DNA of 64,000 bases from assembly GCA_003542615.1 (NCBI GenBank), contig DPKG01000014.1:8521-72520 (forward strand). Direction: 5' to 3'. Both the position numbers and the translations under genes were made by a program. Shown one piece after another: positions 16,819 through 32,692 of this stretch (its first letter is position 1; each line of letters starts with the position of its first letter). The notes beneath the pieces are model-generated. The model ran no database searches and was not told where the DNA came from. It saw nothing but the letters and a program-made list of their open reading frames with translations. This DNA comes from Candidatus Shapirobacteria bacterium. Its GTDB lineage: Bacteria; Patescibacteriota; Microgenomatia; UBA12405.

Positions 16819-17307
16819 CTAAAAAAGTGAACCGATCAGAAGACCTATCAGGACAGTTATTCCTCCAACAATTAACATTTCAATGGATCCATGGTTTGAT
16901 TTTTTAATAAAAAGCTTATCTTTTAAGTATCCCAGGATGAATAATCCAGCAAAAGAACTAATAACCGATAGTACCGGAGTCCAGGTTGAGAAAGAAAACA
17001 AAAAAGGAATAACAGGGATGATACCGCCAATTATGTATGATAAAAACATTAGGATGCTACCAATAAAAAGGTCGTCTTGATGGTTACTTTTGGGAAGGTC
17101 GTGGACAGATTTTTCGCTTAGGTATTGACCGGCGGCCATAGAAAGAGCTTCGATAATTATGGTTACTGCTGCTGTTAATAAGATGTAATTACGATTGTTT
17201 ACGGCAGCACTAATACCAACTACAATGCCGGTTGTAGATACCAGTGCATCTTGAAATCCAAAAACAATACTTCGGACATAATCTTGATTGATTGATTTGG
17301 TAAACAT
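16819..17307 (-). CDS. VIT1/CCC1 family membrane protein (iron/manganese transporter-like), short form
   Basis: 'GFQDALVSTTGIVVGISAA' matches the VIT family signature; 162 aa membrane core only. Confidence 0.55.
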   Translation of the reverse strand: MFTKSINQDYVRSIVFGFQDALVSTTGIVVGISAAVNNRNYILLTAAVTIIIEALSMAAGQYLSEKSVHDLPKSNHQDDLFIGSILMFLSYIIGGIIPVIPFLFSFSTWTPVLSVISSFAGLFILGYLKDKLFIKKSNHGSIEMLIVGGITVLIGLLIGSLF

Positions 17308-17370
17308 AGTTAATATTAACAGCGAATGTAAAATTTAAAATAATATTTTTTGAAAAAGTTGTTTTACTAA

Positions 17371-18456
17371 TTATTTACGGTATTGGTGTGAGGCGATAAA
17401 GGTGGTTACGGGGACGGCTAAAATTAATCCGATACTACCAATTAAAGTCCGGACAATTTCTTCGGCAATCATTTCATAATTTATAATTTGACCAAAGGGA
17501 TGGGGATTGTTGATAAATATAAGAAGTAAAGGAAGAGAGGCTCCGGCATAAGCCAAAACCAAGGTGTTGACCATGGAAGTAATATGATCTTTACCGATTA
17601 CCATTGAACGGGAGTAGAGATCTTTGGGTTTGGTCAATTTGGCGGTAGTAGCCAGTTCGTCAACTATGGCTGATTGCGAAATGGTTATATCATCGAGTAC
17701 GCCCAGGGCACCGACGACGATACCGGCTAGCAAAATTCCTTTCATGTTTAAAGAATCTTTGGCAAGAGATAACATTCCGGCTTCTTCGGATGATAAACCG
17801 GTTAAATAACTTAGTTTTATGAAAATTGAGCCAAGAATTACGGTAATTATTAAAGTTATGGTTGAGCCGATGATGGCGAGAGTGGTTTTTTTGTTGAAAC
17901 CGTGAGCTAAATAAAATGAGACAGGAATGATAATTAGGGAACCAAAAATGGCAATAAATACAGGATTATCGCCGGCTGAAATTCTGGGTAAGATAAACAA
18001 AAAAACAACAATAAAAGTGAATACCATACCTAAAATTGAAAAAAATCCTTTCCATTTGGCTACGACAATCAATAAAAATATAAAAATTGCTGAAAGCAAA
18101 ATTAAGCTATCTTTGCGAATAAAATCTATAATTACGTATTCACTTTTGCCGTCGGGAGAGGTGGCAAGATTTAGCAAAACACGGTCATTGACCGAATATT
18201 TGACAAGATTGGCGAGGGGTTGGTTGCCATTTTCAATAATTATTTTTTTATTGTCCTGAGTGGATAATTCCAATTCGAGTTTTTGATAAAGTTGATTTCT
18301 GCCCATTACTTCGATTTGATATTCTTCTTCGATTTTGACTACAGTAGCTTCAACGGATTGGGTGTTGTCTTCAATTGCATTGATTTGTCGGGGAAAAATA
18401 GTAAATGGTAAAAATAAGGTTAATAAAAAAAGGAAATTGAATTTATTAATTGGCAT
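17371..18456 (-). CDS. polytopic membrane protein with N-terminal extracellular domain (YibE/F-like?)
   Basis: Signal/anchor, ~110 aa extracellular domain, then about 8 TM helices including 'GVLDDITISQSAIVDEL'. Family uncertain. Confidence 0.35.
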   Translation of the reverse strand: MPINKFNFLFLLTLFLPFTIFPRQINAIEDNTQSVEATVVKIEEEYQIEVMGRNQLYQKLELELSTQDNKKIIIENGNQPLANLVKYSVNDRVLLNLATSPDGKSEYVIIDFIRKDSLILLSAIFIFLLIVVAKWKGFFSILGMVFTFIVVFLFILPRISAGDNPVFIAIFGSLIIIPVSFYLAHGFNKKTTLAIIGSTITLIITVILGSIFIKLSYLTGLSSEEAGMLSLAKDSLNMKGILLAGIVVGALGVLDDITISQSAIVDELATTAKLTKPKDLYSRSMVIGKDHITSMVNTLVLAYAGASLPLLLIFINNPHPFGQIINYEMIAEEIVRTLIGSIGLILAVPVTTFIASHQYRK

Positions 18457-18492
18457 ATATAATTTTACTTTAAATTAAGAAAGGCGGATTTT

Positions 18493-18864
18493 TTAGGCAA
18501 ACAGAGAATTATAAAAATAGTGAATCAGGATGGCAAGTATAAGGGTAAGGTAGGAAGCGGAAGTTTTGCGGGTGTAATATTGGAGATAAAAAAGTGAAAC
18601 ATGAAGTAGGGTAGTGGTGACAAGGCGAAGAGGAAGGTCGGAAAAGTTTCCCAGGGCAAAAAAATTGACAAGATAAAGTACTGTTTCGGACAGGGAAAAG
18701 GTAATTCCCAATAATAAAGGAAATATCCATGAATTTTTGGAGGGGGTAAATTTAACCAGGAAAAATTTGAATAATTCTTCGACGAGATGAGGATAGGGAA
18801 TTAGGGTCTCAATTAACCAAAGAGGAAAAGGGGCAAAGAGGCAGAAAATAATTGGAATAGTCAT
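18493..18864 (-). CDS. small hypothetical membrane protein
   Basis: 123 aa, 4 predicted TM. Confidence 0.35.
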   Translation of the reverse strand: MTIPIIFCLFAPFPLWLIETLIPYPHLVEELFKFFLVKFTPSKNSWIFPLLLGITFSLSETVLYLVNFFALGNFSDLPLRLVTTTLLHVSLFYLQYYTRKTSASYLTLILAILIHYFYNSLFA

Positions 18865-21657
18865 TTAGGGTAAATTCCGTTCAATAAAATCCTGACTGAT
18901 CCAGCCTTCAACATTGATTCTGGTGAGAATCACTTTGACCCAACGTTTGGTCTCAACTAAAATTTCAGCCGTTTGATCTTGAGTTAGTTTGTGGGTGACA
19001 CTGGAATTAAAGGAAGGTTTGGAATAAAGATAGACAGTGTCGTAACTGGGAACACGGATATTAATTTTTGAAAGAGGGGCACTGGAGCTGGAGGGAGCGG
19101 GAGATTGAATTTCCTGGACCAGGAGGCTGAGTATCCAGCCCTGAGTTGAATCATAAGAAGTCTGTAGCCATTTTTCGCCTAAATCGTTGTATTTTTCGGA
19201 ATAAATAGGAATTTCTATGCCGGAGGGAATGGTGGTAATTAAAACGGAATTGCTGTCGGGTTGACTGCGAAGGTTGATTTTATTACCGTTGGTAGGGGCA
19301 ATAATGACTTTTTTAAGAATAGAAAGGGTGGGAGTCGGAGTTTGGGTGGGGGTAATTTGAGGAGTATTGGTGGGTTCTTGCGGGGGTTTTGTGGGAGATG
19401 GTTCGGTTTTCTGTGAAGGGGTGGGGGTAGCATCTGTAGTGGCAGAAAGGACAGAAGGGAGAATGGCAGATTTTTGGGGTCGGCTTTGAAAAATTTGGTA
19501 AGTAACAGAAGAAGATAAACCAAAAGAAAGCCCTACTATGGCGGCAATAGTAATTCCTCGATGAATTTTGGGAGAAGCACGGGGTTTGGTGGGAGGGGGA
19601 ATACCATTGTCTTGGGGTTGGCTTGGGGGAGCTTGAGAAGTGGAATAAACGGGAGGAGTAATGAGAGAAGGTGGGGTGGGTTTGGGGGGGGTGAGAGATC
19701 TAATGTAAATTGCCAGGAAAGCAAAGCCGGCCACAAGTACTATAATAATACCCCAAACCGATATGGCCTGAACTCCCCCGATGAAGCCGGAAAGGGTACC
19801 GATGGATCCGGCGGATGAAACTATGGTTTTTAGGCTCTCGAGATTGCGGTTGACTGAATCAAGTTCAATTTTGGTTTCATAATAGCCTATGATTTTGTCT
19901 TCCGGGAGTTTGGCTTGTTTTTGGAGAATTGTTATTTTGTCAAGGGAGGCAAGGATATTTGAGTGGAGGGTGGTACCTTGGGCAAAATATGAGGTATTTT
20001 TGAGGGGAGCAAAAAGTTCATCAGCCTGTTTTTTGAGGGAGTCAATTTTTTCTTGAGGAATAGTCCAAATATCTTCAACTTGAACTTCAAGAATGATGGT
20101 TCCTCCCGGTTTTAGGGTGATATCTGCAGAGGCATAATAGACAGATTTGGTGGCGTCAAATTTTATTTCTAATTCAGGAGATTTTTTAATAATATTTTCC
20201 TGTTTTACTTCTGAGGGGAAATAATAAAGATAAGGAACTGTTTGAGTGGAAGTTTTAGAAGGATTGGTAATTAAACTTTTGAAGATGATACTGCCTTCTT
20301 CAAGCCAGGAGGTGATGATGGGTTTACTGACAACTGTTTCGAGTAGGGTGCGGTTGGTACTAAGGAGTGCCTTCATAGCCAAAACCTGGTTCATAAGTTC
20401 AGAAAGATCGGTATTTTGGGTAATATTGTTGTTGGTAATGTTTTCGACATTGGAAACAGAGTTAATGGCAGCGATATCGGTAGAGAGATCTTTGACCTTG
20501 TCGTAAATATCGGTAGCAGAAAGACTCCCCCATTTTTCAAGTAAATCATTAAGGTCGAGAGTACTATTGTCGATGGCTTCGATGGCTTCTTTGACCTGTT
20601 GGATACGGCCAAAAATTGAAGCAGTGTTTGAGGTGTCGGAGGTAGAACCGATTGAATTTTCAATGGAGTCTACATAAGCCTTGAGAGTGATGATTTCATC
20701 GTAGGCGGTAGTTGATTTGCCATTGAAATTTAACTCGGAACGGAGGGCGGTAGCAGTGGTGTAAGCGCCATTGGCGGCATTGTAGATGGTAGAGGCAGAA
20801 TTGGTGCCCCATTTATCGATAAGACACTGGACCTGACCAAAAACAGAGTCGTCGGTGCAGGTTTGGGTATTGTTGCCTAATTCTGATTCAAGAGAGTCAA
20901 TATAATTTAAAATATCGGTAACACTATAAGTACTCCATTTGGCTAGAATATTGTCGGTGTTGGTCTGAATGGTGGTGACTGAAGTTTGGAGAGAATCGAC
21001 TTTGGAATCGATGGTGACGAGATCATTTTGAACTGAGGTAAGCTGAAGAGAGATATCGGAAAGACTGGTGCCGACGGAATTGACGGTGTCGGTGGTGGCA
21101 AGGGTGGCACCGTTGTCGAGAGTTGGAGAAGAGAGGGTTTTGGAGGTGTGTCCCCAGATATCACTAACCAAAGTACCAAATCCAGAGAGAGAACGATCAG
21201 AATAAGTCCAGATTTCCTGGACAATATTTCCAAAGGAACTGATAGTGCGGTTATCGTAACTCCAAACTGATTCGGCGGTATCTTGGGTAATAGTAAAGCT
21301 TTTGTCCAGACACATATAGCCATCAATGGTAGTACAACAAATTTGGCTACGGTATAAACCAAGTGGTTGACCGGAGGTGCCGATATCGTAGGAATACCAA
21401 CCGTCAGCGGAGGGGGGAAGTGTAGCGGAATTAATAAATACGGTACCATCCGGATAACGAGCGGTAAGAGTACAGTCAGCATCGGCTACGGGAACATATT
21501 CATCGTTGAAAAGAAATTCACCAACGATACAATCAGCAGTATTGGTACATTGCTGATATTCTCCGGGGGCGGCAGATACGGGAAAGGCCGGGACCAAAAA
21601 AAAGATCCCGGCTAAAAGAATTTTTAGCCATTTGCAATATTTTGTTACCGTCTTCAT
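18865..21657 (-). CDS. large surface protein: signal peptide, Cys-rich N-domain, helical region, TM anchor, Pro/Thr-rich linker, two C-terminal SH3b-like domains
   Basis: 930 aa; N-terminal 'LVPAFPVSAAP' signal; TM 'WGIIIVLVAGFAFLAIYI'; 'PTPTPSQKTEPSPTKPPQEPTNTPQITPTQTPTPT' linker; two ~60-aa SH3b-like repeats ending in W-rich motifs. Confidence 0.6.
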   Translation of the reverse strand: MKTVTKYCKWLKILLAGIFFLVPAFPVSAAPGEYQQCTNTADCIVGEFLFNDEYVPVADADCTLTARYPDGTVFINSATLPPSADGWYSYDIGTSGQPLGLYRSQICCTTIDGYMCLDKSFTITQDTAESVWSYDNRTISSFGNIVQEIWTYSDRSLSGFGTLVSDIWGHTSKTLSSPTLDNGATLATTDTVNSVGTSLSDISLQLTSVQNDLVTIDSKVDSLQTSVTTIQTNTDNILAKWSTYSVTDILNYIDSLESELGNNTQTCTDDSVFGQVQCLIDKWGTNSASTIYNAANGAYTTATALRSELNFNGKSTTAYDEIITLKAYVDSIENSIGSTSDTSNTASIFGRIQQVKEAIEAIDNSTLDLNDLLEKWGSLSATDIYDKVKDLSTDIAAINSVSNVENITNNNITQNTDLSELMNQVLAMKALLSTNRTLLETVVSKPIITSWLEEGSIIFKSLITNPSKTSTQTVPYLYYFPSEVKQENIIKKSPELEIKFDATKSVYYASADITLKPGGTIILEVQVEDIWTIPQEKIDSLKKQADELFAPLKNTSYFAQGTTLHSNILASLDKITILQKQAKLPEDKIIGYYETKIELDSVNRNLESLKTIVSSAGSIGTLSGFIGGVQAISVWGIIIVLVAGFAFLAIYIRSLTPPKPTPPSLITPPVYSTSQAPPSQPQDNGIPPPTKPRASPKIHRGITIAAIVGLSFGLSSSVTYQIFQSRPQKSAILPSVLSATTDATPTPSQKTEPSPTKPPQEPTNTPQITPTQTPTPTLSILKKVIIAPTNGNKINLRSQPDSNSVLITTIPSGIEIPIYSEKYNDLGEKWLQTSYDSTQGWILSLLVQEIQSPAPSSSSAPLSKINIRVPSYDTVYLYSKPSFNSSVTHKLTQDQTAEILVETKRWVKVILTRINVEGWISQDFIERNLP

Positions 21658-21754: not shown

Positions 21755-21787
21755 CAAAAAAAGGGAATCGATGATTCCCTTTTTTTA
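21755..21787 (-). terminator. bidirectional intrinsic terminator hairpin
   Basis: AAAAAAAGGGAATCGATGATTCCCTTTTTTT: an 8-bp perfect stem with A/T runs on both sides. Lies between tatA copy A and the 930-aa gene. Confidence 0.5.
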
Positions 21788-21810: not shown

Positions 21811-21969
21811 TTATTTTTTATTTTCTTCTTTGCCGGAAAAAGCTTTACGGAATTCTTTAATGGCATCACCAATTCCACGACCTAATTCAGGTAATTTTTT
21901 ACCGCCGAAAAGGAAGAGCAAGACGACGGCAATGATTATGAGCTCAGTTGAGCCAATATTTCTAAACAT
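21811..21969 (-). CDS. tatA: TatA/E family protein, copy A (52 aa), not in ORF track
   Basis: Manual translation MFRNIGSTELIIIAVVLLFLFGGKKLPELGRGIGDAIKEFRKAF...: N-terminal TM helix plus the 'FGxKKLPE' TatA signature and an amphipathic helix. Confidence 0.65.
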   Translation of the reverse strand: MFRNIGSTELIIIAVVLLFLFGGKKLPELGRGIGDAIKEFRKAFSGKEENKK

Positions 21970-22011
21970 TGGTGCCTCCTAGTTAATTAATAAAGAGTTT
22001 GATAGTGTTTG

Positions 22012-22146
22012 TTAGCTTTTTAGAGACTTTTTGATCTCTTTGATGGCTTCAGCAATACCCTTTGAAAGTTCCGGCAACTTACTTCCACCGAAAAGGAAGA
22101 GGAGTATAACTCCAGCTAGTATTAATTCGGGTGTTCCTATATTCAT
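22012..22146 (-). CDS. tatA: TatA/E family protein, copy B (44 aa), not in ORF track
   Basis: MNIGTPELILAGVILLFLFGGSKLPELSKGIAEAIKEIKKSLKS. Confidence 0.6.
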   Translation of the reverse strand: MNIGTPELILAGVILLFLFGGSKLPELSKGIAEAIKEIKKSLKS

Positions 22147-22164
22147 AATTGTTGTTTTGCCTCC

Positions 22165-22896
22165 TTAACTTATCTTAATTGAGTTTTTTAGATTTGCAAT
22201 AGGATAAAGACTTTTTTGAGGATTAAAAAGTAAGGTCCCTTCAAACAATAAAGCCAAGGGAACAAAGATTAGAGACATGGATAAAATATCGGTGGGAGGT
22301 AAAAGAATATCAAAAATTAAAAGACCGGCATATACGTATTTACGTTGAGCAGTGAGAATATTTCTGTCAATAACACCGAGACGAAGTAAAATTGTTAAAA
22401 AGATGGGAAGTTCGAAAACAATTGCCATACAGGTACCCATGACTACAACCTGGGTCAAAAAAGCTTCAATGTCCCAAAAATTACCGATATTAAATTTCTG
22501 ACTGGTATTGACGTAGATGTCGATGACAAACTGGAGGATACGAACACCAAAAATAAAACCGGCAATAAAAAGAATTATACTGATAGGTAGAAGTTTGGTA
22601 ATAAGACGAAATTCATGAGGACGAAGAGCGGGTTTGATAAATCCCAGAAGTTCATAAATTAAAAGCGGTCCGGCAAAAATAATGCCGGAAAGAATACTAA
22701 TGCTAATAGCCAGATTGATGAATTGGTAGGGCGAAACCAGGACGATATTAATATTTTCGAGGTTAAAAATAGAAATAAGACTTGTGATTATCCAACGATT
22801 TTTGACAGCACCAAAAATAACACCAATAACAAAGGCAAGAGCGACCTTAAAAACTTTTGACCGGATCTCGTTTAGATAATGGTCGAATTGGGGCAC
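22165..22896 (-). CDS. tatC: Sec-independent protein translocase TatC
   Basis: 243 aa, 6 TM; N-terminal 'HYLNEIRSKV' (TatC LxEHLxELR region), 'FELPIF', 'LLPPTDILSMS' (TatC LLTPPD motif). GTG start. Confidence 0.7.
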   Translation of the reverse strand: MPQFDHYLNEIRSKVFKVALAFVIGVIFGAVKNRWIITSLISIFNLENINIVLVSPYQFINLAISISILSGIIFAGPLLIYELLGFIKPALRPHEFRLITKLLPISIILFIAGFIFGVRILQFVIDIYVNTSQKFNIGNFWDIEAFLTQVVVMGTCMAIVFELPIFLTILLRLGVIDRNILTAQRKYVYAGLLIFDILLPPTDILSMSLIFVPLALLFEGTLLFNPQKSLYPIANLKNSIKIS

Positions 22897-22898
22897 AT

Positions 22899-23054
22899 TT
22901 ATTTCTTGTTACCCTGATCTTCGAAGCCTTTACGAAATTCTTTGACTGCGTCACCAATTCCACGGCTTAATTCGGGTAATTTTTTACCGCCGAAAAGAAG
23001 GAGCAGGATAAGACCTAATATGATTAATTCTGTGGTTCCGATGTTGCTGAACAT
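22899..23054 (-). CDS. tatA: TatA/E family protein, copy C (51 aa), not in ORF track
   Basis: MFSNIGTTELIILGLILLLLFGGKKLPELSRGIGDAVKEFRKGF... Confidence 0.65.
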   Translation of the reverse strand: MFSNIGTTELIILGLILLLLFGGKKLPELSRGIGDAVKEFRKGFEDQGNKK

Positions 23055-23070
23055 AAATTTGAATTAAATT

Positions 23071-23205
23071 TTAATTTTTGAGAGCTTTTTTAAATTCTTT
23101 TATGGATTGAACAATGCCACGGGTAAGTTCAGGAAGTTTTCGGTCGCCGAAAAGGATGAGTAAGATTATACCTAATAAAATTAATTCGTTGGTACCGATT
23201 CTCAT
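23071..23205 (-). CDS. tatA: TatA/E family protein, copy D (44 aa), not in ORF track
   Basis: MRIGTNELILLGIILLILFGDRKLPELTRGIVQSIKEFKKALKN; ATGA overlap with copy E. Confidence 0.6.
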   Translation of the reverse strand: MRIGTNELILLGIILLILFGDRKLPELTRGIVQSIKEFKKALKN

Positions 23206-23384
23206 GATTCGTCCTCTTTGTTGATGTCTTTTTTAACGTCTTTAAGTTCTTTATTGATGTTTTTGAGTTCTTTTCCGGCTTGACCGGCACCTTTGGCTAA
23301 TTCACTGACTTTTTTACCACCAAAAAGAAGAAGTAAAATAAGGAGAAAAATAAGAATTTCGGTAAGGCCAATATTATTGAACAT
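23202..23384 (-). CDS. tatA: TatA/E family protein, copy E (60 aa)
   Basis: The track ORF 23202-23420 is trimmed to the internal Met 'MFNNIGLTEILIFLLILLLLFGGKKVSELAKGAG', which gives the TatA signature. Confidence 0.6.
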   Translation of the reverse strand: MFNNIGLTEILIFLLILLLLFGGKKVSELAKGAGQAGKELKNINKELKDVKKDINKEDES

Positions 23385-23428
23385 ATAAGGAATCTTAAAT
23401 ATAAAACGACAAAAGTTCAAGTAGCAAA

Positions 23429-23938
23429 TTATTTGAGGGAAGCCAGGGTGGCTTTGGATTTGGTGTCTTTGAGAGTTTTACCGGTGCTTCCAGGAATAGT
23501 ATGTGAACTGACGAGCTCATCCCAGACTGCGTCGGCAATGGCATTGATATCTTCGACAGTGACAGTTGAAGTTGCGGCTACCAAACCAGCAGAATTTGAT
23601 GATCTGACTGAAACTTGGTTGACGTTGGTACGGTCACTGACGTTACTGTTGGCGTTGACAAGATTAACGGCATACTGACCATCTTCAAAGGTAATAGTAT
23701 AGGGTGGTAATATCTCGATAACTCGGGCAAAAGTAAGACTTCCTAGGGTGACTTCAGTGTTGTGGTTGTGGGTCTTTAACAAGTAGATTCCATACACGGC
23801 GGCTTCGTAGGCTTTTAAGGCTAATCTAAACCAATTAAGGTCCAGTTCTCTGATTTCCGTGGGAATACTTTGAATTAAAGTCATGTCTTCCCTAGGGATG
23901 AGAATGACAAAGGTAAGGGGGTCTATAGAAATGGCCAT
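23429..23938 (-). CDS. hypothetical protein (169 aa), last gene of the virion-like operon
   Basis: No signal peptide; Ser/Thr/Val-rich C-terminal half. No family recognised. Confidence 0.4.
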   Translation of the reverse strand: MAISIDPLTFVILIPREDMTLIQSIPTEIRELDLNWFRLALKAYEAAVYGIYLLKTHNHNTEVTLGSLTFARVIEILPPYTITFEDGQYAVNLVNANSNVSDRTNVNQVSVRSSNSAGLVAATSTVTVEDINAIADAVWDELVSSHTIPGSTGKTLKDTKSKATLASLK

Positions 23939-24162
23939 TAGCTACCTCCAGCATAGACTCGAGTTTGGATAGCAACTAACTGTTTATTGATGTTTTCAAA
24001 CTTAGAGTCGTACTGTCTGATAATACCATCCAAATCTTTGACTTGCTTTTGTAATTTCTTGACTAATTCTTCGGTTAATTGGTTGTAGACAATAATTGCC
24101 TTGATATTGTTGATGGTGTTTTTTTCAAAAATCTCTCGTAGTTGTTGTTCGCCGGCATCCAT
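23938..24162 (-). CDS. hypothetical coiled-coil protein (74 aa)
   Basis: Heptad-rich, Lys/Gln/Glu-rich; start/stop overlap with the 23429 gene. Confidence 0.35.
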   Translation of the reverse strand: MDAGEQQLREIFEKNTINNIKAIIVYNQLTEELVKKLQKQVKDLDGIIRQYDSKFENINKQLVAIQTRVYAGGS

Positions 24163-24220
24163 ATTTGTATTCTAATGATACGACAAGTGACTGATATGTT
24201 CAATGATCGGAGAATTATTC

Positions 24221-24514
24221 TTACTTCTTAAAAAAACTTTTCTTGGTTTTTGGGGTTTCAGATTCATCGCTTTCATCAACGGCTGATTCGTTATCTTTGG
24301 TTGGATTTTCCATATATTTTTCAATTTCTTTGCGGATTTGATAAGGATCATATCCCGATGTCAGGTACAAATGATATCTATTTTCAAAAAATATAACAAC
24401 ATTTTTCTGAAGTGATTTTTCTTGAGCTTCCTCTTTGATTTTGAGTGCTTCACTGCGGGATTTGACCTTAGTGAATACTATGTGTTTATTTAAATCTTCA
24501 AATGTTTGTGGCAT
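24221..24514 (-). CDS. hypothetical protein (97 aa), acidic C-tail
   Basis: No family recognised. Confidence 0.35.
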   Translation of the reverse strand: MPQTFEDLNKHIVFTKVKSRSEALKIKEEAQEKSLQKNVVIFFENRYHLYLTSGYDPYQIRKEIEKYMENPTKDNESAVDESDESETPKTKKSFFKK

Positions 24515-24534
24515 AAATACTTTTAATTAATATT

Positions 24535-26304
24535 TTAGGTATCACTTGTACGGATGGCGGTAGCGGTGTTGTTGGAGTTAGTTTGTGACCAGGGAGCGAT
24601 ATATTGTTTGATGGGGGTATTGTTAACTTCACCTCCATCTCTAACTATAATAACTAAGCTTAAAGCAGTAACATCGCTATGAACACTAGTAAAAGAGAGG
24701 GAGCCCGGCGCACCGGCCAGGTCATCTATATAGGAAATATAAACACCATTGCTGATACTGGCATTAACTGTTAAAAAATCTGCTACATTAGGGACGTCAG
24801 CTTCGGAAGCTGCTGGGTCAATAGTAAATGTTTTACTAGTCGTATTAACAGCAGTATATATTAGTCGTCTTTCAAAGCCATCATTGTCGATAACCCTAAT
24901 AGTTCCACTTGCCGGAGTATAGTCGGGGACAGCATTGACTACGACTGAAGTAATATTGTCAGCAGCTAAAGCAGTAGAAAGTGTCATTTGGGTCTTGTTG
25001 ATGGCCGGATCGTTATTGCTATCGACACCAAAACGAGGGGCAACTAATACCCGATCTTCGCCATCTACCAGGCCAGCCAAGGTGTTGGTAACATAGTTTG
25101 GCGGAGATTTTGGAGCATCACCTTCCAAATCGGAAAGAGAATCGCTTGATGATAAATCGGTTGGTTCAATACCTAATCCATAAGCACCGATGATAGCTGA
25201 ACCGGTAGAAGCACCACAGAAAGGTTTAGAAACGGTACGCTCAAGGTAAGACGTTACCGAGGCCACTCCGGTGGCACCAGTGATAGAACCGTTGGGGGCA
25301 GCTCCAGTTAGAAGCTGAATATATAAATGGGTGGCTGATGTAGTGCTATTGGCGGCGAAAAGCTGACCAGTGCCAAGGGTAGCGCCAGCACCCCAAGTTA
25401 ATAACTCAGGTTCGACAAAAGTTCCAGTTGATTGGACGACTGTTATGTCGTGGGTGATGCCACGGAATAATTCACCGCTGATACCATATAAAGTAGTTGC
25501 AGATGAACCATCACGGGAAAGATATTTAGTGTATTCATAGAAATCGTTGATGGTAGTATGGGTACCGGAAATGTTCCAATCGGAATAATAATGTTCATCC
25601 TCAAGATTGTTGTCTATGTCCAATGCAGCGTAACCTTCGGTATTAGTGTAGTCAGTACTCCAACCGGAGACCGTGCCGGAATCCGTTTGGTTGTTAAGGT
25701 CGGTGGAATCAGTCAAAGCCAAAACGTTGTTACCCCGGGCGGTAGCATTGATGGTAAACTCCGAGTAAGTATAGCCGAAACGGCGGCAGGTACCGATAAG
25801 TTTTCTGCCATCAATGGGGTTTCCGCCGGATACGGTTTTGATCATAAAACGGTGAGAGATACCGGAGGTGGCGTCGGCATTTAGACCAGCATTGTTATAA
25901 TTCCAGAAACTTAAGGCACTGCTTATAACAGCGCCATTTTGGATGATTCTGATTTGGACGTCAGCATTACCGAAGTTAACGATACCGTCGTAGATGTCGT
26001 CACCATCATTTTGGATGATAGAACCATCGTATAGATGTTCGGCGGCGGTGGCATCGATATTGTAATTATTTATTAGGGTAATAATGTTATCGGTGGACCT
26101 GGCAGAAGGATTAAGACTGGTAATATCGAGTTCGTCGTCTCCAGCAGCAACAGCATCGTCGGCTAACCCCTGGAGCCAACGGTGAAATTCAATGACAGTA
26201 GCATAAGACGGAGTACCACCGGTGCCGTCGTGATCGCCACCGACATATCTAATATCGTTGGCTACTCCACGGGTAATTGTCCAGTCAGTTGCAACTAGTG
26301 CCAT
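24535..26304 (-). CDS. phage virion-like fibre/receptor-binding-like protein, paralog 1 (589 aa)
   Basis: No signal peptide; Gly/Thr/Ser/Asn-rich; shares 'LTDSTDLNNQTD' and 'INDFYEYTKY' blocks with the 27118 gene. Local GC is clearly above the window average. Confidence 0.5.
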   Translation of the reverse strand: MALVATDWTITRGVANDIRYVGGDHDGTGGTPSYATVIEFHRWLQGLADDAVAAGDDELDITSLNPSARSTDNIITLINNYNIDATAAEHLYDGSIIQNDGDDIYDGIVNFGNADVQIRIIQNGAVISSALSFWNYNNAGLNADATSGISHRFMIKTVSGGNPIDGRKLIGTCRRFGYTYSEFTINATARGNNVLALTDSTDLNNQTDSGTVSGWSTDYTNTEGYAALDIDNNLEDEHYYSDWNISGTHTTINDFYEYTKYLSRDGSSATTLYGISGELFRGITHDITVVQSTGTFVEPELLTWGAGATLGTGQLFAANSTTSATHLYIQLLTGAAPNGSITGATGVASVTSYLERTVSKPFCGASTGSAIIGAYGLGIEPTDLSSSDSLSDLEGDAPKSPPNYVTNTLAGLVDGEDRVLVAPRFGVDSNNDPAINKTQMTLSTALAADNITSVVVNAVPDYTPASGTIRVIDNDGFERRLIYTAVNTTSKTFTIDPAASEADVPNVADFLTVNASISNGVYISYIDDLAGAPGSLSFTSVHSDVTALSLVIIVRDGGEVNNTPIKQYIAPWSQTNSNNTATAIRTSDT

Positions 26305-26403
26305 ATTATTTTAAAAATTATTTTAGAGGTAAATTTATAAATTAGTTAATGAAGTTATATTGTTTATAGCTTTTTAAAATTTGGATGTCAATGACAGGTT
26401 ACC

Positions 26404-26916
26404 CTAAGCCTTTTTGAAGCGGTCGGAAATGTAGAAATTGGTAATATTGTCGCTTTTTCCATCAATAAAATCGTTTAGAGTTTTTTGTCCTAAAGCTATA
26501 ATTTCTTGAAGATTGCTGTTGGTATTGTTGGTAGAAATATAGTTTAAAAATTCACTAAAGGTGACATCGGGAACAGCGGCCATTAAGCTGATAAAACTAT
26601 TAAAAACAGAATCCTTGGAGGCTTCAAATTTGACAAAATCTTGATTGACCAAATCACCGACCTTGGTATCTTTGTCTAAAGTTTTTAAAATATCCATTAA
26701 AACCAAAGATTTAACCAATAAAAAGTTTAGATTCATTAAAATATTACAAGTGGCTAATTGTTTTTTGGTGTAAAGTTTTGGTTTATTGTCAGTATCGGTC
26801 CAATAACTTAGTTTTTGAGGAGAATTGTTACTCCCCTTTTTAAGCATGGTATTGGGAGGTCTTACCCAGTTTCGATTCTTTTGGAGAATTTTTGATTTTT
26901 TGGAAGGATTAATCAT
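26404..26916 (-). CDS. hypothetical protein (170 aa)
   Basis: Basic N-terminus; no family recognised. 4-nt overlap with the upstream gene suggests coupling. Confidence 0.4.
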   Translation of the reverse strand: MINPSKKSKILQKNRNWVRPPNTMLKKGSNNSPQKLSYWTDTDNKPKLYTKKQLATCNILMNLNFLLVKSLVLMDILKTLDKDTKVGDLVNQDFVKFEASKDSVFNSFISLMAAVPDVTFSEFLNYISTNNTNSNLQEIIALGQKTLNDFIDGKSDNITNFYISDRFKKA

Positions 26917-27125
26917 CTTTGGGAGCCTTTGGAATAAATTAAGGCTAACATTTCAAGCATTTGTTTTTGTAATTTGGCAAATTTGTGTTGATAATTATTA
27001 ATTATATCCTGTTTGTTTAGAATATCTTTCTCCAGATGTCGAAGAAGTTTTCGGATTCGTTTGGCTTTTAAAACAGCTTCTTGGAGTTTTTGGGAGGAGG
27101 AATTTTCAAATTCTTCTCTATTCAT
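26913..27125 (-). CDS. hypothetical small helical protein (70 aa)
   Basis: Coiled-coil-like; overlaps both neighbours. Confidence 0.35.
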   Translation of the reverse strand: MNREEFENSSSQKLQEAVLKAKRIRKLLRHLEKDILNKQDIINNYQHKFAKLQKQMLEMLALIYSKGSQR

Positions 27126-29046
27126 CTTTGGCTAATTGAATAATGACTGATAGACCGGTACTGGTATTGACAGTACCACTGATAGCTCCCTGTTGATAGT
27201 AAGGAGTACCGGATGATTTCCGGACCCAACCGGCGACCGGTTGGTTGGCGGTAAGACTTCGGGTATCGCTAATTTCCCCAATGGAGTTAGTGGCACCGTT
27301 GATAATGGCAAAGGTAGCGGTAATACTAGTACCGGTAGCCGGTGATAAATCGAGAGTTTCAGTGGCAGTATAGGTATATTGATTTTCGTTGGTGACAGTA
27401 ACTTCAAAGGCGCCGTTGTAATCGTCGTCATTGGTAACACCTTTAATAATGACGTAATCTCCACTAGTTAGTCCGTGGGCAGTGTGACTGACGGTGGCGG
27501 TGGTACCGGAACCGGTAATAGAGACAGGAGCTTGGTAAAAATAGTTAGCGTTATCGGTAACCCAAACCAGGACGTTGGCAAATTCGATGACCGAAGCAGT
27601 AGCTAAATCCTGAACGGTAATAGTGGTGGCAACGGTACTGGGCGGAGTTTGGATGGTATCAGTAGAATCGGTGAGCTGATAATTGTTGGAGTCGGCACCG
27701 GCCATGTTGTAAACATAAACGCCACGAGCCCCATAAAATTTACCTCCGGCAAAAGTACCGAAAGGAGCGATTTTTACTTCAATTAATGTTTCCGGAGTGC
27801 CGTTAACGAGAGCGGCACCAGTAGAAGAATCGGTGATGGCTTGATTGTCGGTAAAAGTTCCCCTGACGGTATGGAGAGTCAAAATACCAGTGTTGTCACC
27901 ATTGTAATGGTCGGCGGTGATGATAGCAGTACCGGTAGCGGTAGAAACAGCCAGACCTTGGGTGAAAGCAGCGGTGCGGGTGTCATAAGAGAGACGAAGA
28001 GTACCGACTCCGGTATACTGTTCGCCGTTTAAACCATTTAGAGAAGTGGTAGAGGTGCGACGGGTGACGTATTTGGTGTATTCGTAAAAATTTTTGATGG
28101 TATTGCCGCCACAGTTTATAACTACATCGTAAGGTTGCAGGCCATTGCCATTACTTAGATCTTTGGTGTCGGCGCCAAAGGTAAAAGTGATACCAGAAAG
28201 AGCGGCAATGGTACTGATGTCGGTGGTGTTATTTAAGTCGGTACTGGTAGCCAGAGGGATAGGAGAGCGACCACCGGTGGTCATGATAGTTTGATAATGA
28301 TCGTATAATTTACCGTATTCTCGGGCAAAGATAGTGATTACACCGCTATCATTAAGGGTGCCCTGAATGACAATTCTTTGTAAAATGTCAATGTGACCTG
28401 AAGGCCACCAGGCGGTGATTTTGGTACCAGCTTGGATAATATAAATTTCGGTACCTGAGGCAAGAGTACCGATGGTATAGATATTAGCCCAGGTGGTACC
28501 CCCGGTGGCGGCGGCTAATATTTGGGTATCGATGTGAAAATTACAGGTGACATCGCCGGAAGTAGAATCCCAATTGTCGGTAGCGGCATTGCTGGCAGGA
28601 CGAATGACAAGATACTCACCACTGACAAAGAGAAGGGTACCGGAATCACCATCGGCGTGAGTAATAGTGTTGCCAATATCTCCGGAGACGATATTGGTGC
28701 CGGAACGTTTGATGACAACTATACCGGTACGAACAGTGGCAACGCGGGGATAATCTTTGCTAATTAATCCCCCACCATACAAATGTTGAGTAGTAGTTCC
28801 GTCTATATACCAAGGGTCCTGCTGGTCGTCCAAATCGATAAGGCCAATTTGATATTCCGTGGGGGTAATGGCATTAATAGGAATACCGTCATCCATTTGG
28901 GTGGGTTCATCAAACAGGTCTTGAAGAGCAATGTAAAGTTCTCTGACAGAATAAGTACCGGTAGTACCAGACCAGACAATTCTTTTTTGACGGGTTTCTG
29001 ATAGATAGTAAACGGTAAAATCTCCCGATAGAACAGTGCTTGACAT
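27118..29046 (-). CDS. phage virion-like fibre/receptor-binding-like protein, paralog 2 (642 aa)
   Basis: Same motif blocks as the 24535 gene ('LATSTDLNNTTD', 'IKNFYEYTKY') plus similar N-termini. No signal peptide; G/T/S-rich. Confidence 0.5.
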   Translation of the reverse strand: MSSTVLSGDFTVYYLSETRQKRIVWSGTTGTYSVRELYIALQDLFDEPTQMDDGIPINAITPTEYQIGLIDLDDQQDPWYIDGTTTQHLYGGGLISKDYPRVATVRTGIVVIKRSGTNIVSGDIGNTITHADGDSGTLLFVSGEYLVIRPASNAATDNWDSTSGDVTCNFHIDTQILAAATGGTTWANIYTIGTLASGTEIYIIQAGTKITAWWPSGHIDILQRIVIQGTLNDSGVITIFAREYGKLYDHYQTIMTTGGRSPIPLATSTDLNNTTDISTIAALSGITFTFGADTKDLSNGNGLQPYDVVINCGGNTIKNFYEYTKYVTRRTSTTSLNGLNGEQYTGVGTLRLSYDTRTAAFTQGLAVSTATGTAIITADHYNGDNTGILTLHTVRGTFTDNQAITDSSTGAALVNGTPETLIEVKIAPFGTFAGGKFYGARGVYVYNMAGADSNNYQLTDSTDTIQTPPSTVATTITVQDLATASVIEFANVLVWVTDNANYFYQAPVSITGSGTTATVSHTAHGLTSGDYVIIKGVTNDDDYNGAFEVTVTNENQYTYTATETLDLSPATGTSITATFAIINGATNSIGEISDTRSLTANQPVAGWVRKSSGTPYYQQGAISGTVNTSTGLSVIIQLAKDE

Positions 29047-29073
29047 TTTCTTATTTTACAATTTTTGAATTGA

Positions 29074-30678
29074 CTATGTAGAGGCAGTGATATCTTCGAT
29101 TAGAGTAATGGTGGCTGAATAGCCAGTACCAGTAATAGTACCCGATGAGCTGACGGGAATATATTTGGTGTCCCCAGTTGAAGATTTTCTAACACGAACG
29201 TAAATGGCGGCGGGAGTGGTGCCGCCATAACCAAAAGAAACTTCACCATTAATATCCGTATCGGTATTTAATAACACGGAATCATCACTGGAAAGACAGA
29301 CAGCGACTTGGGCTGTTTGTATGGGATCGTTGGTGACATCAACAACGGTGACAGAAACGGGGACAGAAGAAACAACACTGGTGGTGGAACCAGCACTGTT
29401 TTGGACGGATATGGTACCGGTAATACCGGAAGCATTGAGAGTAACCGCTCCGCCGGAATTATTATAAATTACTTCATTTCCGGTAGTACCATCGGTAGTG
29501 GCATAGCCGGTAAAAGTATGACCAGAAAGACTATAAGAATTACCGGCACAAGAGGTATCAAGTTCGATGGCATGACTGGTACCATCGGAGACAAAAGTGC
29601 AGGCGGTAATAACTGAGGGATTAGTAGCTAAAATTGATGAGGCAGCAGTGGTATTGGTAAAAGTACAGTCGGTGAAAGTTCCACCACCCTGGGTAACTAG
29701 AGCACATCTTCTAAAAGTGGCGGAAATGACGGTGCTATTTGATTGAAAGATAAAAGTGTTCATGTCGGTAAAGGAGCTGTTGTTGATATTGACATCGGCA
29801 TTAGCAACAACTTCAAAATCACCTTTAGATAATTGGGTGGACAAAAGGGCGGTAAAGTTGACGTTGTCCCAGGTGACGACCGAACTGGTATTTTTTATTT
29901 CAATCTTATTAAAGGTGGCAAAGGTAGCGGGGGTGTCGTCTATGGTAATGTTGATATTTGAGTCGACAAAGTAACAGGCTGCTGTCTCCCCAAAACTCAT
30001 GAGACCTTTCCAGAGATAACCGGTACCTTCTTTTTGAAATAGACCCCATCTGGCTGTTTGCGCATCGTTGACGGCAGCCATGGCAGCAAAATTGCCGTAA
30101 CCACCGCCGATGTTATCTCCGTTGTCGAAAAGTATCTGGCCACGGCCATAATACATAGCATCAAAACCATGCATGGTTCCCTTGGAAATATTAGAAATAA
30201 CATCAGCGGCGGCACCAAAAAAACGATAGGTACCACCATGGCCGGTACCGACAGTATAATCGGCAGTTTTGGCAGGATTAACAGCATAACATTGCCAGCC
30301 ACCATAGGGATTGCGACCTTTATCACTACCACCAACTCTCCATGCGGAGAAGTTTAAAACATCGGCACCAACGATGGCTCTTAAACCTCCGGAAGCGTAG
30401 TTGCTCATAGCGTTAGCTGGTAAAAGAACGTGCCACATAAAAACGCAGGTGTAGTTAGCAGTAAATGAAGCAGATAAAGAAGAGCCATAATCAAAACAAC
30501 CGGAACAGAGTCCGGTTTTATTATTGGTGTCGGATGAACGACAACCTGAACCTTCAATGTAATAATCACCTTCTCCCAGTGGAGCATCTCCAACAGCCCA
30601 AGCCGTCATTTCCACCCAGGTGCCGCTTTCAGCATTAGTGAGAGGGGTTAGATCAGAATTATATGTGGGTACGGCCAT
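29074..30678 (-). CDS. right-handed beta-helix (pectate-lyase-fold) tailspike-like protein with C-terminal beta-sandwich domain (534 aa)
   Basis: Repeats of the type 'TFRRCALVTQGGGTFTDCTFTNTTAASSILATNPSVITACTFVSDGTSHAIEL'. C-terminal 'VTVVDV...GEVSF' carboxypeptidase-regulatory-like region. No signal peptide. Confidence 0.5.
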   Translation of the reverse strand: MAVPTYNSDLTPLTNAESGTWVEMTAWAVGDAPLGEGDYYIEGSGCRSSDTNNKTGLCSGCFDYGSSLSASFTANYTCVFMWHVLLPANAMSNYASGGLRAIVGADVLNFSAWRVGGSDKGRNPYGGWQCYAVNPAKTADYTVGTGHGGTYRFFGAAADVISNISKGTMHGFDAMYYGRGQILFDNGDNIGGGYGNFAAMAAVNDAQTARWGLFQKEGTGYLWKGLMSFGETAACYFVDSNINITIDDTPATFATFNKIEIKNTSSVVTWDNVNFTALLSTQLSKGDFEVVANADVNINNSSFTDMNTFIFQSNSTVISATFRRCALVTQGGGTFTDCTFTNTTAASSILATNPSVITACTFVSDGTSHAIELDTSCAGNSYSLSGHTFTGYATTDGTTGNEVIYNNSGGAVTLNASGITGTISVQNSAGSTTSVVSSVPVSVTVVDVTNDPIQTAQVAVCLSSDDSVLLNTDTDINGEVSFGYGGTTPAAIYVRVRKSSTGDTKYIPVSSSGTITGTGYSATITLIEDITAST

Positions 30679-31117
30679 ATTTTTCGATTAAAAAGTTATT
30701 AAACTCATTTTTAACATCTTGGGCATTATCTCCTTTTTTGAGATAAATTTTGTTAATTCCATTAGTATTGATAATCACTGAATAACCTTGATTCCCAAAA
30801 TTTTTAATCTGTTGTTTGGCAATTTCGGTCATCTCGAAACGGTGGTCTTGGGTGCCAAAAAAAATATTATCATTAACTTTTTCAAATATCATTTTACAGT
30901 GATCTGGCCTTAATTTGATAGAGACTTTTTCCATTTGATGATAGGCACAACGAAATCCGGCACAGGCTTTTGGGCGATCTTTGTAGATTAGACAGCCTTT
31001 TTTAAGAACACAATGTTTACAAAGTTGATTGGCTGGTTTATTAAGACTGCGTACAGGTAATAGATAGCAACACAGGGTACATTGGCCACAGCGATTTTGG
31101 TTTTCAATATTTGCCAT
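30659..31117 (-). CDS. YkgJ/UPF0153-like Cys-rich (putative Zn/Fe-chelating) protein; first gene of the operon
   Basis: 'CGQCTLCC' (CxxCxxCC) plus further Cys pairs 'CKHC', 'CAGFRC'. Confidence 0.45.
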   Translation of the reverse strand: MANIENQNRCGQCTLCCYLLPVRSLNKPANQLCKHCVLKKGCLIYKDRPKACAGFRCAYHQMEKVSIKLRPDHCKMIFEKVNDNIFFGTQDHRFEMTEIAKQQIKNFGNQGYSVIINTNGINKIYLKKGDNAQDVKNEFNNFLIEKYGRTHI

Positions 31118-31241: not shown

Positions 31242-31709
31242 TTAATCGACTGATGGTTCATCAGTTTTTGGCTGGGAATTGAGGATGTAATTTTTCTTGT
31301 CGGAAAAAGGGTGAATTATACCCGTTATCAAGTAGTAGATTAGAGGAATAAGGAGAAGGGTACTGGCAAAAGCGATAGAAATAGTCCACTGGACGGTGGT
31401 GATTTTCATGCCGGTGGCTAGTTGTTGGATGGCATAAAGATTGCTGAGGATAAAAATAACAAAGAGGGAAATGGCTTTTTGAAAATTAAAGCCACTAATA
31501 AAGGATAATACGAGCCAAACTAGGAGAAAAAGTCCGATGGTTCTGGAAAAAATACCAAAGGTAGTCAGAGGATATTGAGACATCAGAGGAGAATTCAAAA
31601 ATTGGTAAGGATTTTTGACGGTGAGGGCAATTGGTCCGGATATTGAGTCGATGGCGTGGGCTAAGACGATAAGGGCAAAGGTAAAGATAAAGAGATATTC
31701 TTTTTTCAC
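31242..31709 (-). CDS. hypothetical polytopic membrane protein (155 aa)
   Basis: 4 predicted TM; 4-nt overlap with the upstream gene. Confidence 0.4.
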   Translation of the reverse strand: MKKEYLFIFTFALIVLAHAIDSISGPIALTVKNPYQFLNSPLMSQYPLTTFGIFSRTIGLFLLVWLVLSFISGFNFQKAISLFVIFILSNLYAIQQLATGMKITTVQWTISIAFASTLLLIPLIYYLITGIIHPFSDKKNYILNSQPKTDEPSVD

Positions 31710-32692
31710 CTTTTTTGTAAAAAACGATTATAAATAAATAGACTTAAAGCTATACTAGAGAAATAAGTGAATATAAGTAGGATAACATTTCGCAACACGA
31801 AAGGGGAAATAAATATCAAGGCGTCATCAATCGGAGTTGTAATGGCCAATATCCATTTGGTAGAAGAATTAAGTTTGACAGGTGATGAAGCGATTAAAGT
31901 TCTGGTAAGCTTACCTGTAGAGAAATCGGGGATGACAATATCAAGCTTGGATTCTTGATTAGAGGTCAGTTTTTGACGTATTAGTGGCATAACAATTTTG
32001 TCACCAAGAAAAGGATGTTCGTCGACGATATGAAAAATGTTTTGGTTTACTACTTCTTGTGTAGTACCATTGAAGACATCTCCGTTGGAATTAAATAGAT
32101 AAATACCGGTACGTGGGGAGATTTTTAGAGGTTCAAGATATTTTTCAGTCAAGGAAGGGATAGAAATAGAAACCGTGAGAACCCCAATGAATTTATTGTT
32201 GGAATAAAGGGGAGTGGCGACGGGAATTTTAAAAGTTTGGCCGGCACCAGGTACCCGGGAGACAAATGGCTTGCCAAAAGAAATTGTACCAGGAGGTGAA
32301 CCTGAAGCTGCGATAAAATAATCACGATCTGAGACATTGCCTCCAAGAGAAAGTTTTTCGGCATTACTGGCGGTTAATTTTATTTGACCTTGGATATCGG
32401 TGAGAATGATACCGACAACGGGAGTGTCGGACCAATTATCGACAAAGTCTTGGAGAATTTTAGGAGTGATAATATTATTGCTGGAAAGAATAAGTAAGGA
32501 CCTGGAGGTTAAGTCAATAAAACTACTGATAGAAGATGCTCCAGAACGAACAATAACCTGTTCGCGATGGAGCATTTGCTCAACCAAAGATTTGATACTA
32601 CTGGCTCCGGTAATCTGATATAAGGTAAACGAAAGAGCAAAAAAAATAACAAAAGAAATTGTTGAAATCAGATAAAAAAATTTTTTAGTCAT
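31706..32692 (-). CDS. membrane protein with large extracytoplasmic sensor-like (Cache-like?) domain and no output domain
   Basis: N-terminal TM, ~250 aa periplasmic domain, C-terminal TM, ends immediately. Domain assignment tentative. Confidence 0.35.
   Translation of the reverse strand: MTKKFFYLISTISFVIFFALSFTLYQITGASSIKSLVEQMLHREQVIVRSGASSISSFIDLTSRSLLILSSNNIITPKILQDFVDNWSDTPVVGIILTDIQGQIKLTASNAEKLSLGGNVSDRDYFIAASGSPPGTISFGKPFVSRVPGAGQTFKIPVATPLYSNNKFIGVLTVSISIPSLTEKYLEPLKISPRTGIYLFNSNGDVFNGTTQEVVNQNIFHIVDEHPFLGDKIVMPLIRQKLTSNQESKLDIVIPDFSTGKLTRTLIASSPVKLNSSTKWILAITTPIDDALIFISPFVLRNVILLIFTYFSSIALSLFIYNRFLQKR

Follow-up and report, generated by a model that had tools for sequence, protein, structure and literature searches.

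The 64,000-nucleotide stretch of Candidatus Shapirobacteria contig DPKG01000014.1 presented here, hereafter the window, carries a twin-arginine translocation (Tat) locus in which five tatA genes surround a single tatC. From profile matches, gene context and comparison with relatives, we consider it very probable that this locus encodes a working two-component translocase of the Gram-positive-like TatA plus TatC type in a Microgenomates bacterium of the candidate phyla radiation (CPR), whose TatA subunits may divide roles among themselves. A sequence-only reading had described a Tat cluster of five tandem TatA-family paralogs around one tatC, and profile matches for all six genes bear this out: the five small proteins all lie above the cut-off of the Pfam TatA_B_E profile, and the 243-residue protein lies above that of the TatC profile. 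Gene order, coordinates (Table 1), minus-strand orientation and TatA lengths of 44–60 amino acids proved exact against the open reading frame (ORF) listing and the sequence, and the motifs that had been quoted, 'NIGxxEL...LFGGKKLPEL' in the TatA copies and 'LLPPTD' in TatC, are present.

TatC scores 132.1 bits against Pfam PF00902 (cut-off 25.1 bits), with the match covering profile positions 2–208 of 208, and it aligns to E. coli TatC 9dzz over residues 62–224 and to Aquifex TatC 4b4a over residues 4–223. 'LLPPTD' aligns with 'LLTPPD', a motif of the type found in the fifth transmembrane (TM) helix. Glu95 falls opposite the Glu of 'PALYKHERRL' in the E. coli chain, which we take to be Glu103, and Glu10 falls opposite the N-terminal Glu of the Aquifex chain; both residues are invariant or nearly so in 29 relatives. 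In E. coli, Glu15 and Glu103 lie at the cytoplasmic face of TatC and bind the twin-arginine (RR) motif of the signal peptide. A crude Kyte-Doolittle scan gives seven hydrophobic peaks, one of them probably the first periplasmic loop, and co-linearity with the solved Aquifex and E. coli chains supports a predicted six-helix protein. A profile search found no second tatC in the locus or elsewhere in the window.

The five small proteins score 43.4 (E), 45.0 (D), 50.3 (C), 34.4 (B) and 62.8 bits (A) against Pfam PF02416 (TatA_B_E), which is 13–42 bits over its cut-off of 21 bits. Among NCBIfam models, each of them matches a TatA/E model best, and A (62.0 bits) and C (57.4 bits) pass the cut-off of 53.9 bits for TIGR01411 (tatAE). 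Each protein has a polar Glu, 12 hydrophobic residues, an F-G hinge and then a basic amphipathic helix, and the combination of Glu with a short hydrophobic stretch matches the short-helix design of TatA and TatB (PMC9424591). A check for TatB-like copies had been proposed, and by profile there are none: the best score against TIGR01410 (TatB; cut-off 56.5 bits) is 33.7 bits, for copy A, and each of the five does better on TatA/E than on TatB, by a margin that is similar throughout. The hinges are all 'FG' and none 'GP', and at 44–60 residues the copies are without the long TatB tail. tatA-A is the most canonical and most conserved copy, is 73% identical to tatA-C at the amino acid level, and has TatA 9e07_F and B. 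subtilis TatAd 2l16 as its closest solved chains. Five TatA genes with significant profile matches, packed into 1.6 kb around tatC, are far more than chance would give, and a hidden Markov model (HMM) built from the five copies detected no sixth in the window.

Transcription on the minus strand runs in the order tatA-E, tatA-D, tatA-C, tatC, tatA-B and tatA-A and then into a terminator, as read from the ORF listing and the sequence. The start of tatA-E is the ATG at 23384, with the mechanical ORF extending to a TTG at 23420; the start of tatA-D overlaps the tatA-E stop by 4 nucleotides (ATGA), and the GTG start of tatC lies 2 nucleotides past the tatA-C stop. Shine-Dalgarno sequences are strong for tatA-B (AAGGAGG) and tatA-A (TAGGAGG), and GAGGA precedes tatA-D; inspection of the upstream sequences of tatA-E, tatA-C and tatC gave no obvious counterpart. 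The hairpin that begins 24 nucleotides after the tatA-A stop marks the end of the transcription unit. The tight spacing, the 4-nucleotide overlap, the Shine-Dalgarno sequences and the terminator together indicate that the six tat genes form one predicted operon. A weak promoter match sits in the 44-nucleotide gap ahead of tatA-E, and such matches in this region are not above those in shuffled sequences. No terminator was found between the upstream 169-residue gene and tatA-E, so transcription could equally well read through from upstream.

At least 24 independently assembled contigs, among them contigs from Rifle groundwater assemblies (PRJNA268031), carry an identical TatC, and the locus is thus no assembly artefact. 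The window is chromosomal, with genes for ClpB, four tRNAs, peptidase M3, a type III restriction-modification system and helicases. The expectation that routine annotation would miss the short genes held in part: four copies are indeed shorter than 60 residues, yet on most contigs the public gene calls include every one of the five. Compared with the HMM scan, these calls omit tatA-C on one contig (L002) and tatA-B on another (L005).

Table 1. Positions of the tat genes, associated signals and neighbouring features in the window
Feature	Coordinates	Strand	Description
tatA-E	23202-23384	minus	60 amino acids; first gene of the array; sole class II copy
tatA-D	23071-23205	minus	44 amino acids; short class I copy without C-terminal tail
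tatA-C	22899-23054	minus	51 amino acids; canonical class I TatA
tatC	22165-22896	minus	243 amino acids; GTG start; single receptor subunit of the locus
tatA-B	22012-22146	minus	44 amino acids; short class I copy
tatA-A	21811-21969	minus	52 amino acids; last gene ahead of the terminator
Intrinsic-terminator-like hairpin and T-run	21755-21787	minus	15-pair stem, 3-nucleotide loop; TAAAAAAAGGGAATCATCGATTCCCTTTTTTTG
Weak sigma-70-like promoter match	23398-23427	minus	TTGCTA-18-TATATT; 9/12 matches
Candidate Tat cargo	32745-33572	minus	275-residue membrane protein; only strict RR-motif match in 64 kb
Eight co-directional genes without Pfam match	23429-31117	minus	looks like a duplicated module
930-residue protein	18865-21657	minus	directly downstream of the tat terminator; two C-terminal SH3_3 domains
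dCache_1 sensor-domain protein	31706-32692	minus	328 amino acids; flanking TM segments, no output domain
Cys-rich protein	30659-31117	minus	152 amino acids; several CxxC-type pairs; sole match PHROG 9155 (unknown function, E 7e-7)

The copies are well separated from each other, with pairwise identities of 45–73% for amino acids and 61–76% for nucleotides and no long exact repeats. These values rule out recent tandem duplication, for which a check at the nucleotide level had been proposed, and they do not sustain the suggestion that Tat has been amplified here, since each copy also has an orthologue in a genome whose TatC is 71% identical. That genome, represented by an 836-kb contig (L026), has the same five genes in the same order and with the same lengths, and comparison of the orthologues gives proportions of nonsynonymous differences (pN) of 0.05–0.22 against proportions of synonymous differences (pS) of 0.56–0.83, with synonymous sites near saturation. 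tatA-A is the most constrained copy, with 49 of 52 residues identical and a ratio of nonsynonymous to synonymous rates (dN/dS) of 0.03; the ratio is 0.075 for tatA-C and 0.10 for tatC. For tatA-B, 39/44 residues are identical (pN 0.07, pS 0.83), for tatA-E 41/60 (pN 0.19, pS 0.56), and tatA-D has a pN of 0.22 and a pS of 0.75. With pN far below pS in this comparison, we conclude that all five copies are maintained as coding genes. Given the low identity among copies and the presence of one orthologue for each in L026, these sequence comparisons identify the five as ancient paralogs, each kept by purifying selection.

Related loci were gathered by means of an 11-sequence TatC alignment; a contig search with the single TatC protein gave 218 pattern matches, none of which was confirmed. 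By TatC, the nearest named genomes are those of Candidatus Shapirobacteria, Beckwithbacteria and the 'Microgenomates group', and the relatives have genomes of roughly 0.8–1 Mb that are otherwise streamlined. A TatA HMM scan of 21 related loci found five copies at L024 and L026, four at a further eight loci (L011 and L016–L022, including the complete Beckwithbacteria genome CP011210), three at eight others (L007, L009, L010, L012–L015 and L027) and two at L008. L023 has one copy and L025 none in the sequence scanned, and both loci stop shortly past tatC. Public gene calls give three copies each for two additional relatives (L029 and L030). Five copies are the upper end of a lineage-wide range of two to five and are no one-off. 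Calling the array an unusual expansion is justified relative to model organisms and haloarchaea, which have one or two TatA, but within the clade arrays of three to five are the norm. In the same way, the presence of Tat had been thought notable for this kind of genome; TatA and TatC are both there, but their occurrence in Microgenomatia has already been reported (PMC9166423). Ten of the loci (L008, L011, L014, L015, L018, L019 and L022–L025) come from third-party annotation records of metagenome-assembled genomes titled 'uncultured Pseudomonadales' or 'Gammaproteobacteria'. Their TatC proteins are 42–47% identical to that in the window, which is the same range as for named Microgenomates, and most have similar tatA arrays; judging from this, the titles are probably mislabelled.

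A neighbour-joining tree of 80 TatA sequences splits into two groups, one containing A, B, C and D (class I) and the other containing E (class II). Class I proteins follow the pattern '...KLPEL..G(I/L)..(A/S)IKEF(R/K)KA' with a canonical 'FGGKKLPEL' hinge, and class II proteins the pattern 'G(Q/E)(A/S)G(K/R)ELKxAKxEL...' or the related 'FGAKFLPKMGK' form; copy E has an extended 'GQAGKELK...' helix. The amphipathic helix of tatA-E is GQAGKELKNINKELK, with 'KVSEL' replacing 'KLPEL'. When the class HMMs are built only from sequences other than those of the window and L026, tatA-E scores 79.8 bits for class II and 62.4 for class I, and A–D score 11–20 bits higher on class I than on class II. Both classes are present in most genomes, including ones whose TatC is only 42–52% identical, and by profile comparison neither class is TatB. 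Of the five copies, A, C and D carry Phe at the position equivalent to Phe39 of E. coli TatA, B carries Ile and E carries Leu, and the L026 copies have Phe, Phe, Val, Ile and Leu; PMC6525301 cites the F39A mutation as one that inactivates the E. coli protein. The two 44-residue copies, D and B, are sisters in the tree and occur as a pair only in the window and L026, which accounts for there being five copies and not three or four. Duplication of a gene pair (D-C and B-A) is only partly supported, as the tree joins D with B as sisters and does not do the same for C with A.

We propose that TatC acts as the signal-peptide receptor, and that the five diverged TatA subunits are co-transcribed with it and may share out the roles that belong to TatA, TatB and TatE in E. 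coli. In that organism the resting complex has TatB, and even TatE, bound to TatC, and TatA is recruited in bulk (PMC5777986, PMC13323110). The class II copy E, the tail-less 44-residue copies, or both, would be held constitutively on TatC in a resting receptor complex, and the canonical A and C would supply the bulk subunit recruited into the translocation site; A combines a strong ribosome-binding site with the highest conservation of the five. A likely cargo would be a membrane protein with an internal RRxFLK motif that is encoded about 9.4 kb upstream of the operon, with Sec/YidC inserting its N-terminal helices and Tat its last helix together with the C-terminal domain.

This candidate emerged from an RR-motif scan. 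A genome-wide scan for RR signal peptides had been proposed; a strict scan of the six frames of the window yielded one match, SRRQFLKMAGSAGLGLAALTLVNPKKASA followed by S, inside the ORF at 32745-33572. The protein has four N-terminal TM helices, a Pro-rich linker, the sequence 'SRRQFLK', a Gly/Ala-rich helix, 'NPKKASA-S' and a conserved C-terminal domain of about 100 residues. It scores 19.1 bits on the Pfam TAT_signal model, under the cut-off of 22.7, and an ordinary N-terminal Tat signal is ruled out by the lack of a start codon between the fourth TM helix and the RR motif (the 'V' is GTT). Orthologues in L026 and L008 retain the N-terminal helices and the RR part. At E <= 1e-5 the family numbers 394 proteins, every one of them annotated as 'hypothetical' and lacking a Pfam domain; motifs and TM segments were counted in the best 120 of these. 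RRxFLK is found in 115/120, with KR in the remaining five, and two or four TM segments precede the motif in 98 of the 115 RR-bearing members. An AxA-[AST]FFG sequence follows the motif in 108 members, and 82 have a dibasic pair behind the post-motif TM segment. No more than 10 kb separates the candidate-cargo gene from tatC in the window and in L026, L008, L029 (Daviesbacteria) and L030, which is not the case in L028; this linkage was counted in related genomes, so these are not independent trials.

Proteins inserted by both Sec and Tat are recognized by an even number of TM segments before the RR motif, one weakly hydrophobic segment after it, and positive charges behind that segment (PMC5449189), and the candidate cargo has all of these sequence features. 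The hydropathy of its segment after the RR motif is 1.51 compared with 2.26–2.60 for the upstream segments; family-wide the values are 2.02 and 2.22. We therefore regard the internal-RRxFLK proteins, on these sequence features, as a candidate for a new family with dual Sec/Tat insertion. Like the known examples, the Streptomyces Rieske protein Sco2149, Sco3746, the polyferredoxins and the YkuE family (PMC3471235, PMC5449189), they have an even number of TM segments (two or four) ahead of the RR motif and one weak helix, Lys-Lys and a globular C-terminal domain after it. They differ in that the known families have a cofactor-binding C-terminal domain, whereas the candidate cargo has a beta domain of about 100 residues with no cofactor motif and no Pfam match, and in having a conserved AxA site suggestive of cleavage, a feature that the Rieske case is without. 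An AlphaFold model of the C-terminal domain is a small four-stranded beta domain, with a predicted local distance difference test score of 77 overall and of about 90 or more at residues 70–132; a Foldseek comparison with the Protein Data Bank (PDB) gave no match below E = 0.45.

Several results weigh against a working translocase with divided TatA roles. TatC scores 118.1 bits on the equivalog model TIGR00945, short of its cut-off of 132.7 bits, which fits a divergent CPR orthologue, and the TIGR01411 cut-off is missed by E (40.8 bits), D (45.5) and B (41.4). Judged by their sequences, B and E, which do not have the conserved Phe, could be poor pore-formers or could have another role. The tree was built on about 50 aligned residues without support values, and for that reason we claim only the broad two-class split. 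As no copy is TatB-like by profile, the proposed split of roles is drawn by analogy only. Just one protein with an RR motif is encoded in the 64 kb, and its C-terminal domain has neither a cofactor motif nor a fold match and so gives no hint of why Tat would be needed.

An alternative explanation is that the five copies do one job, simply supplying the large molar excess of TatA over TatC that a translocase requires, with no division of labour. All of them share the core of Glu, 12 hydrophobic residues, FG hinge and amphipathic helix, A and C are as similar as noted above, and TatE is able to substitute for TatA in E. coli (PMC5777986). Redundant copies are expected to be lost or homogenised, however, and L026 keeps the peculiarities of each one, including the 44-residue length, the class II helix and the replacement of Phe by Ile, Val or Leu; both classes also recur in the genomes with TatC at 42–52% identity, these genomes are about 1 Mb and otherwise streamlined, and TatE itself is more than a TatA surrogate (PMC5777986). 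We see a pure dosage effect as possible but on the unlikely side.

The TatA copies might instead be specific to particular cargoes, by substrate or by condition, and share one TatC, in the manner of B. subtilis TatAd-Cd and TatAy-Cy. Substrate-specialised TatA-TatC pairs do occur in Bacillus, and most of the differences among the copies here fall in the amphipathic helix and the tail. Tat isoform operons have been discussed elsewhere (PMC3827258). Against this, locus and window have a single tatC, all copies belong to one operon and show no hint of being regulated separately, and only one RR-motif protein is encoded in the window; the single tatC and single operon make cargo-specific subunits the less likely reading, and we consider them improbable. 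That the small ORFs are not Tat genes at all, and are holin-like or other single-pass peptides, pseudogenes, or products of recent duplication or misassembly, has in its favour their very short length, the low Pfam score of B and a faint similarity of upstream neighbours to phage structural proteins, but it is exceedingly unlikely and effectively refuted by the profile scores, with TatA/E as best NCBIfam match, the recurrence on contigs of independent samples, the tatA genes flanking tatC in relatives, pN far under pS, the divergence of the DNA copies and the chromosomal setting. A prophage or holin origin is ruled out by the housekeeping genes in the window and by the PHROG matches of the neighbours, which are to two families of unknown function only.

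Every gene from 34057 down to 16819 lies on the minus strand. The order starts with an SH3 protein, the RR protein, the dCache protein, a 155-residue TM protein and the Cys-rich protein, continues with proteins of 534, 642, 70, 170, 589, 97, 74 and 169 residues, all without a Pfam match, and then reaches the tat operon, the 930-residue SH3 protein, a 123-residue protein, YibE/F and VIT1. Much of this block recurs in L026, L008, L029 and L030. The 642- and 589-residue proteins share the motifs NFYEYTKYVTRR and DFYEYTKYLSRD, and the gene for each is followed by genes for a coiled-coil protein (70 and 74 residues) and a further protein (170 and 169 residues); the 534-residue protein, which has a beta-helix-like repeat region, precedes both modules. 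No signal peptide was found in the block of eight (23429-31117), which is syntenic in L026 and partly so in L008 and L029. Weak partial matches link the 642-residue protein to cyanophage Syn5 structural protein gp53 (tblastn E 1e-6, 22% coverage) and the 534-residue protein to Virus Rctr197k (tblastn E 2e-4); the 589- and 169-residue proteins had no match in the phage tblastn, and neither the 534- nor the 589-residue protein had one at E <= 1 against PDB sequences. The G+C content is 0.41–0.44 at 24001–30000, overlapping this fibre-like block, against 0.37 in the tat genes and 0.32–0.34 in the left part of the window.

Besides its two SH3_3 domains, the 930-residue protein carries a Sec-type signal peptide, a long Ser/Thr/Asn region of low complexity, a TM segment and a Pro/Thr-rich linker. 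Large proteins also stand beside the tat array in L026 (939 residues, weak SH3_3), L027 (823 residues, no Pfam match) and L029 (1017 residues, SH3_3). The dCache_1 protein is encoded between the RR protein and the 155-residue TM protein, where L030 has a CHASE-domain protein. In L029, type IV pilus genes (T2SSE ATPase, T2SSF platform and N_methyl pilins) at 17165-20840 come directly after the RR and fibre-like block. GC skew in the window is positive in nearly all 2-kb bins of 1-56000 (maximum +0.52) regardless of gene strand, and negative at about 56–62 kb, the site of the type III restriction-modification genes.

A more speculative interpretation, which we regard as a long shot, is that Tat in Microgenomates forms the core of a conserved and dedicated envelope-assembly locus and is not a general housekeeping exporter, with very large folded cargo exported by an expanded and differentiated set of TatA and signal-less fibre proteins hitch-hiking on the RR membrane protein. 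Such a locus would comprise the small SH3 protein, the RR membrane protein, the 155-residue protein with its four TM segments, the extracytoplasmic sensor-domain protein, the 534-, 589- and 642-residue fibre- or beta-helix-like proteins with their coiled-coil and 169-residue partners, the tat operon and the 930-residue SH3 surface protein.

Tat is one of two general protein-export routes, and the division of roles within the TatA family is a matter of ongoing work (PMC5777986, PMC13323110). A lineage with streamlined genomes of about 1 Mb that keeps two to five differentiated TatA per TatC is a natural experiment in subunit specialisation, and its 44-residue variants are near the minimal functional unit. 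The linked internal-RR family offers a concrete, testable cargo in organisms with almost unknown surface biology, and would extend dual Sec/Tat insertion to proteins without an obvious cofactor. A literature search turned up no description of tandem TatA arrays, or of the internal-RR family, in CPR or Microgenomates bacteria.

Among known systems, the locus resembles B. subtilis TatAd-Cd and TatAy-Cy, together with TatAc, in having no TatB by profile, short TatA proteins with an FG hinge, tatA adjoining tatC and several TatA per genome. Bacillus has three TatA and two TatC in separate pairs, whereas this locus has five TatA around its only TatC, all in one operon; B. subtilis TatAd has Gly-Pro-Gly at the position in the TM helix where all five copies here have Glu, and, unlike in Bacillus, two copies are only 44 residues long and tail-less. 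The likeness to E. coli TatA, TatB and TatE lies in one TatC serving several diverged TatA-family paralogs of the same helix design, with both TatC Glu residues kept. In E. coli, TatE is partly TatB-like (PMC5777986) and the core complex holds TatA and TatB on TatC (PMC13323110), but no copy here has the 'GP' hinge, long tail or profile of TatB, and the class I/class II split does not correspond to that between E. coli TatA and TatB, with five paralogs here against three there.

Desulfitobacterium hafniense DCB-2, with four dispersed tatA and one tatC (PMC3306737), shares a single TatC, four or more TatA and no TatB. Its copies are reported from different loci in a large genome described as dehalogenating and metal-reducing (PMC3306737), and those described here are in tandem in a fermentative-type CPR genome with relatives of about 0.8–1 Mb. 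Haloarchaea send almost their whole secretome through Tat and yet have one or two TatA (PMC6525301). The picture of what Tat is stays unchanged by these observations, which add a lineage-specific elaboration: set beside the known systems, the locus is a further case of a well-known machine with an unusually high, lineage-wide number of paralogs, a finding that is real though no more than moderately surprising.

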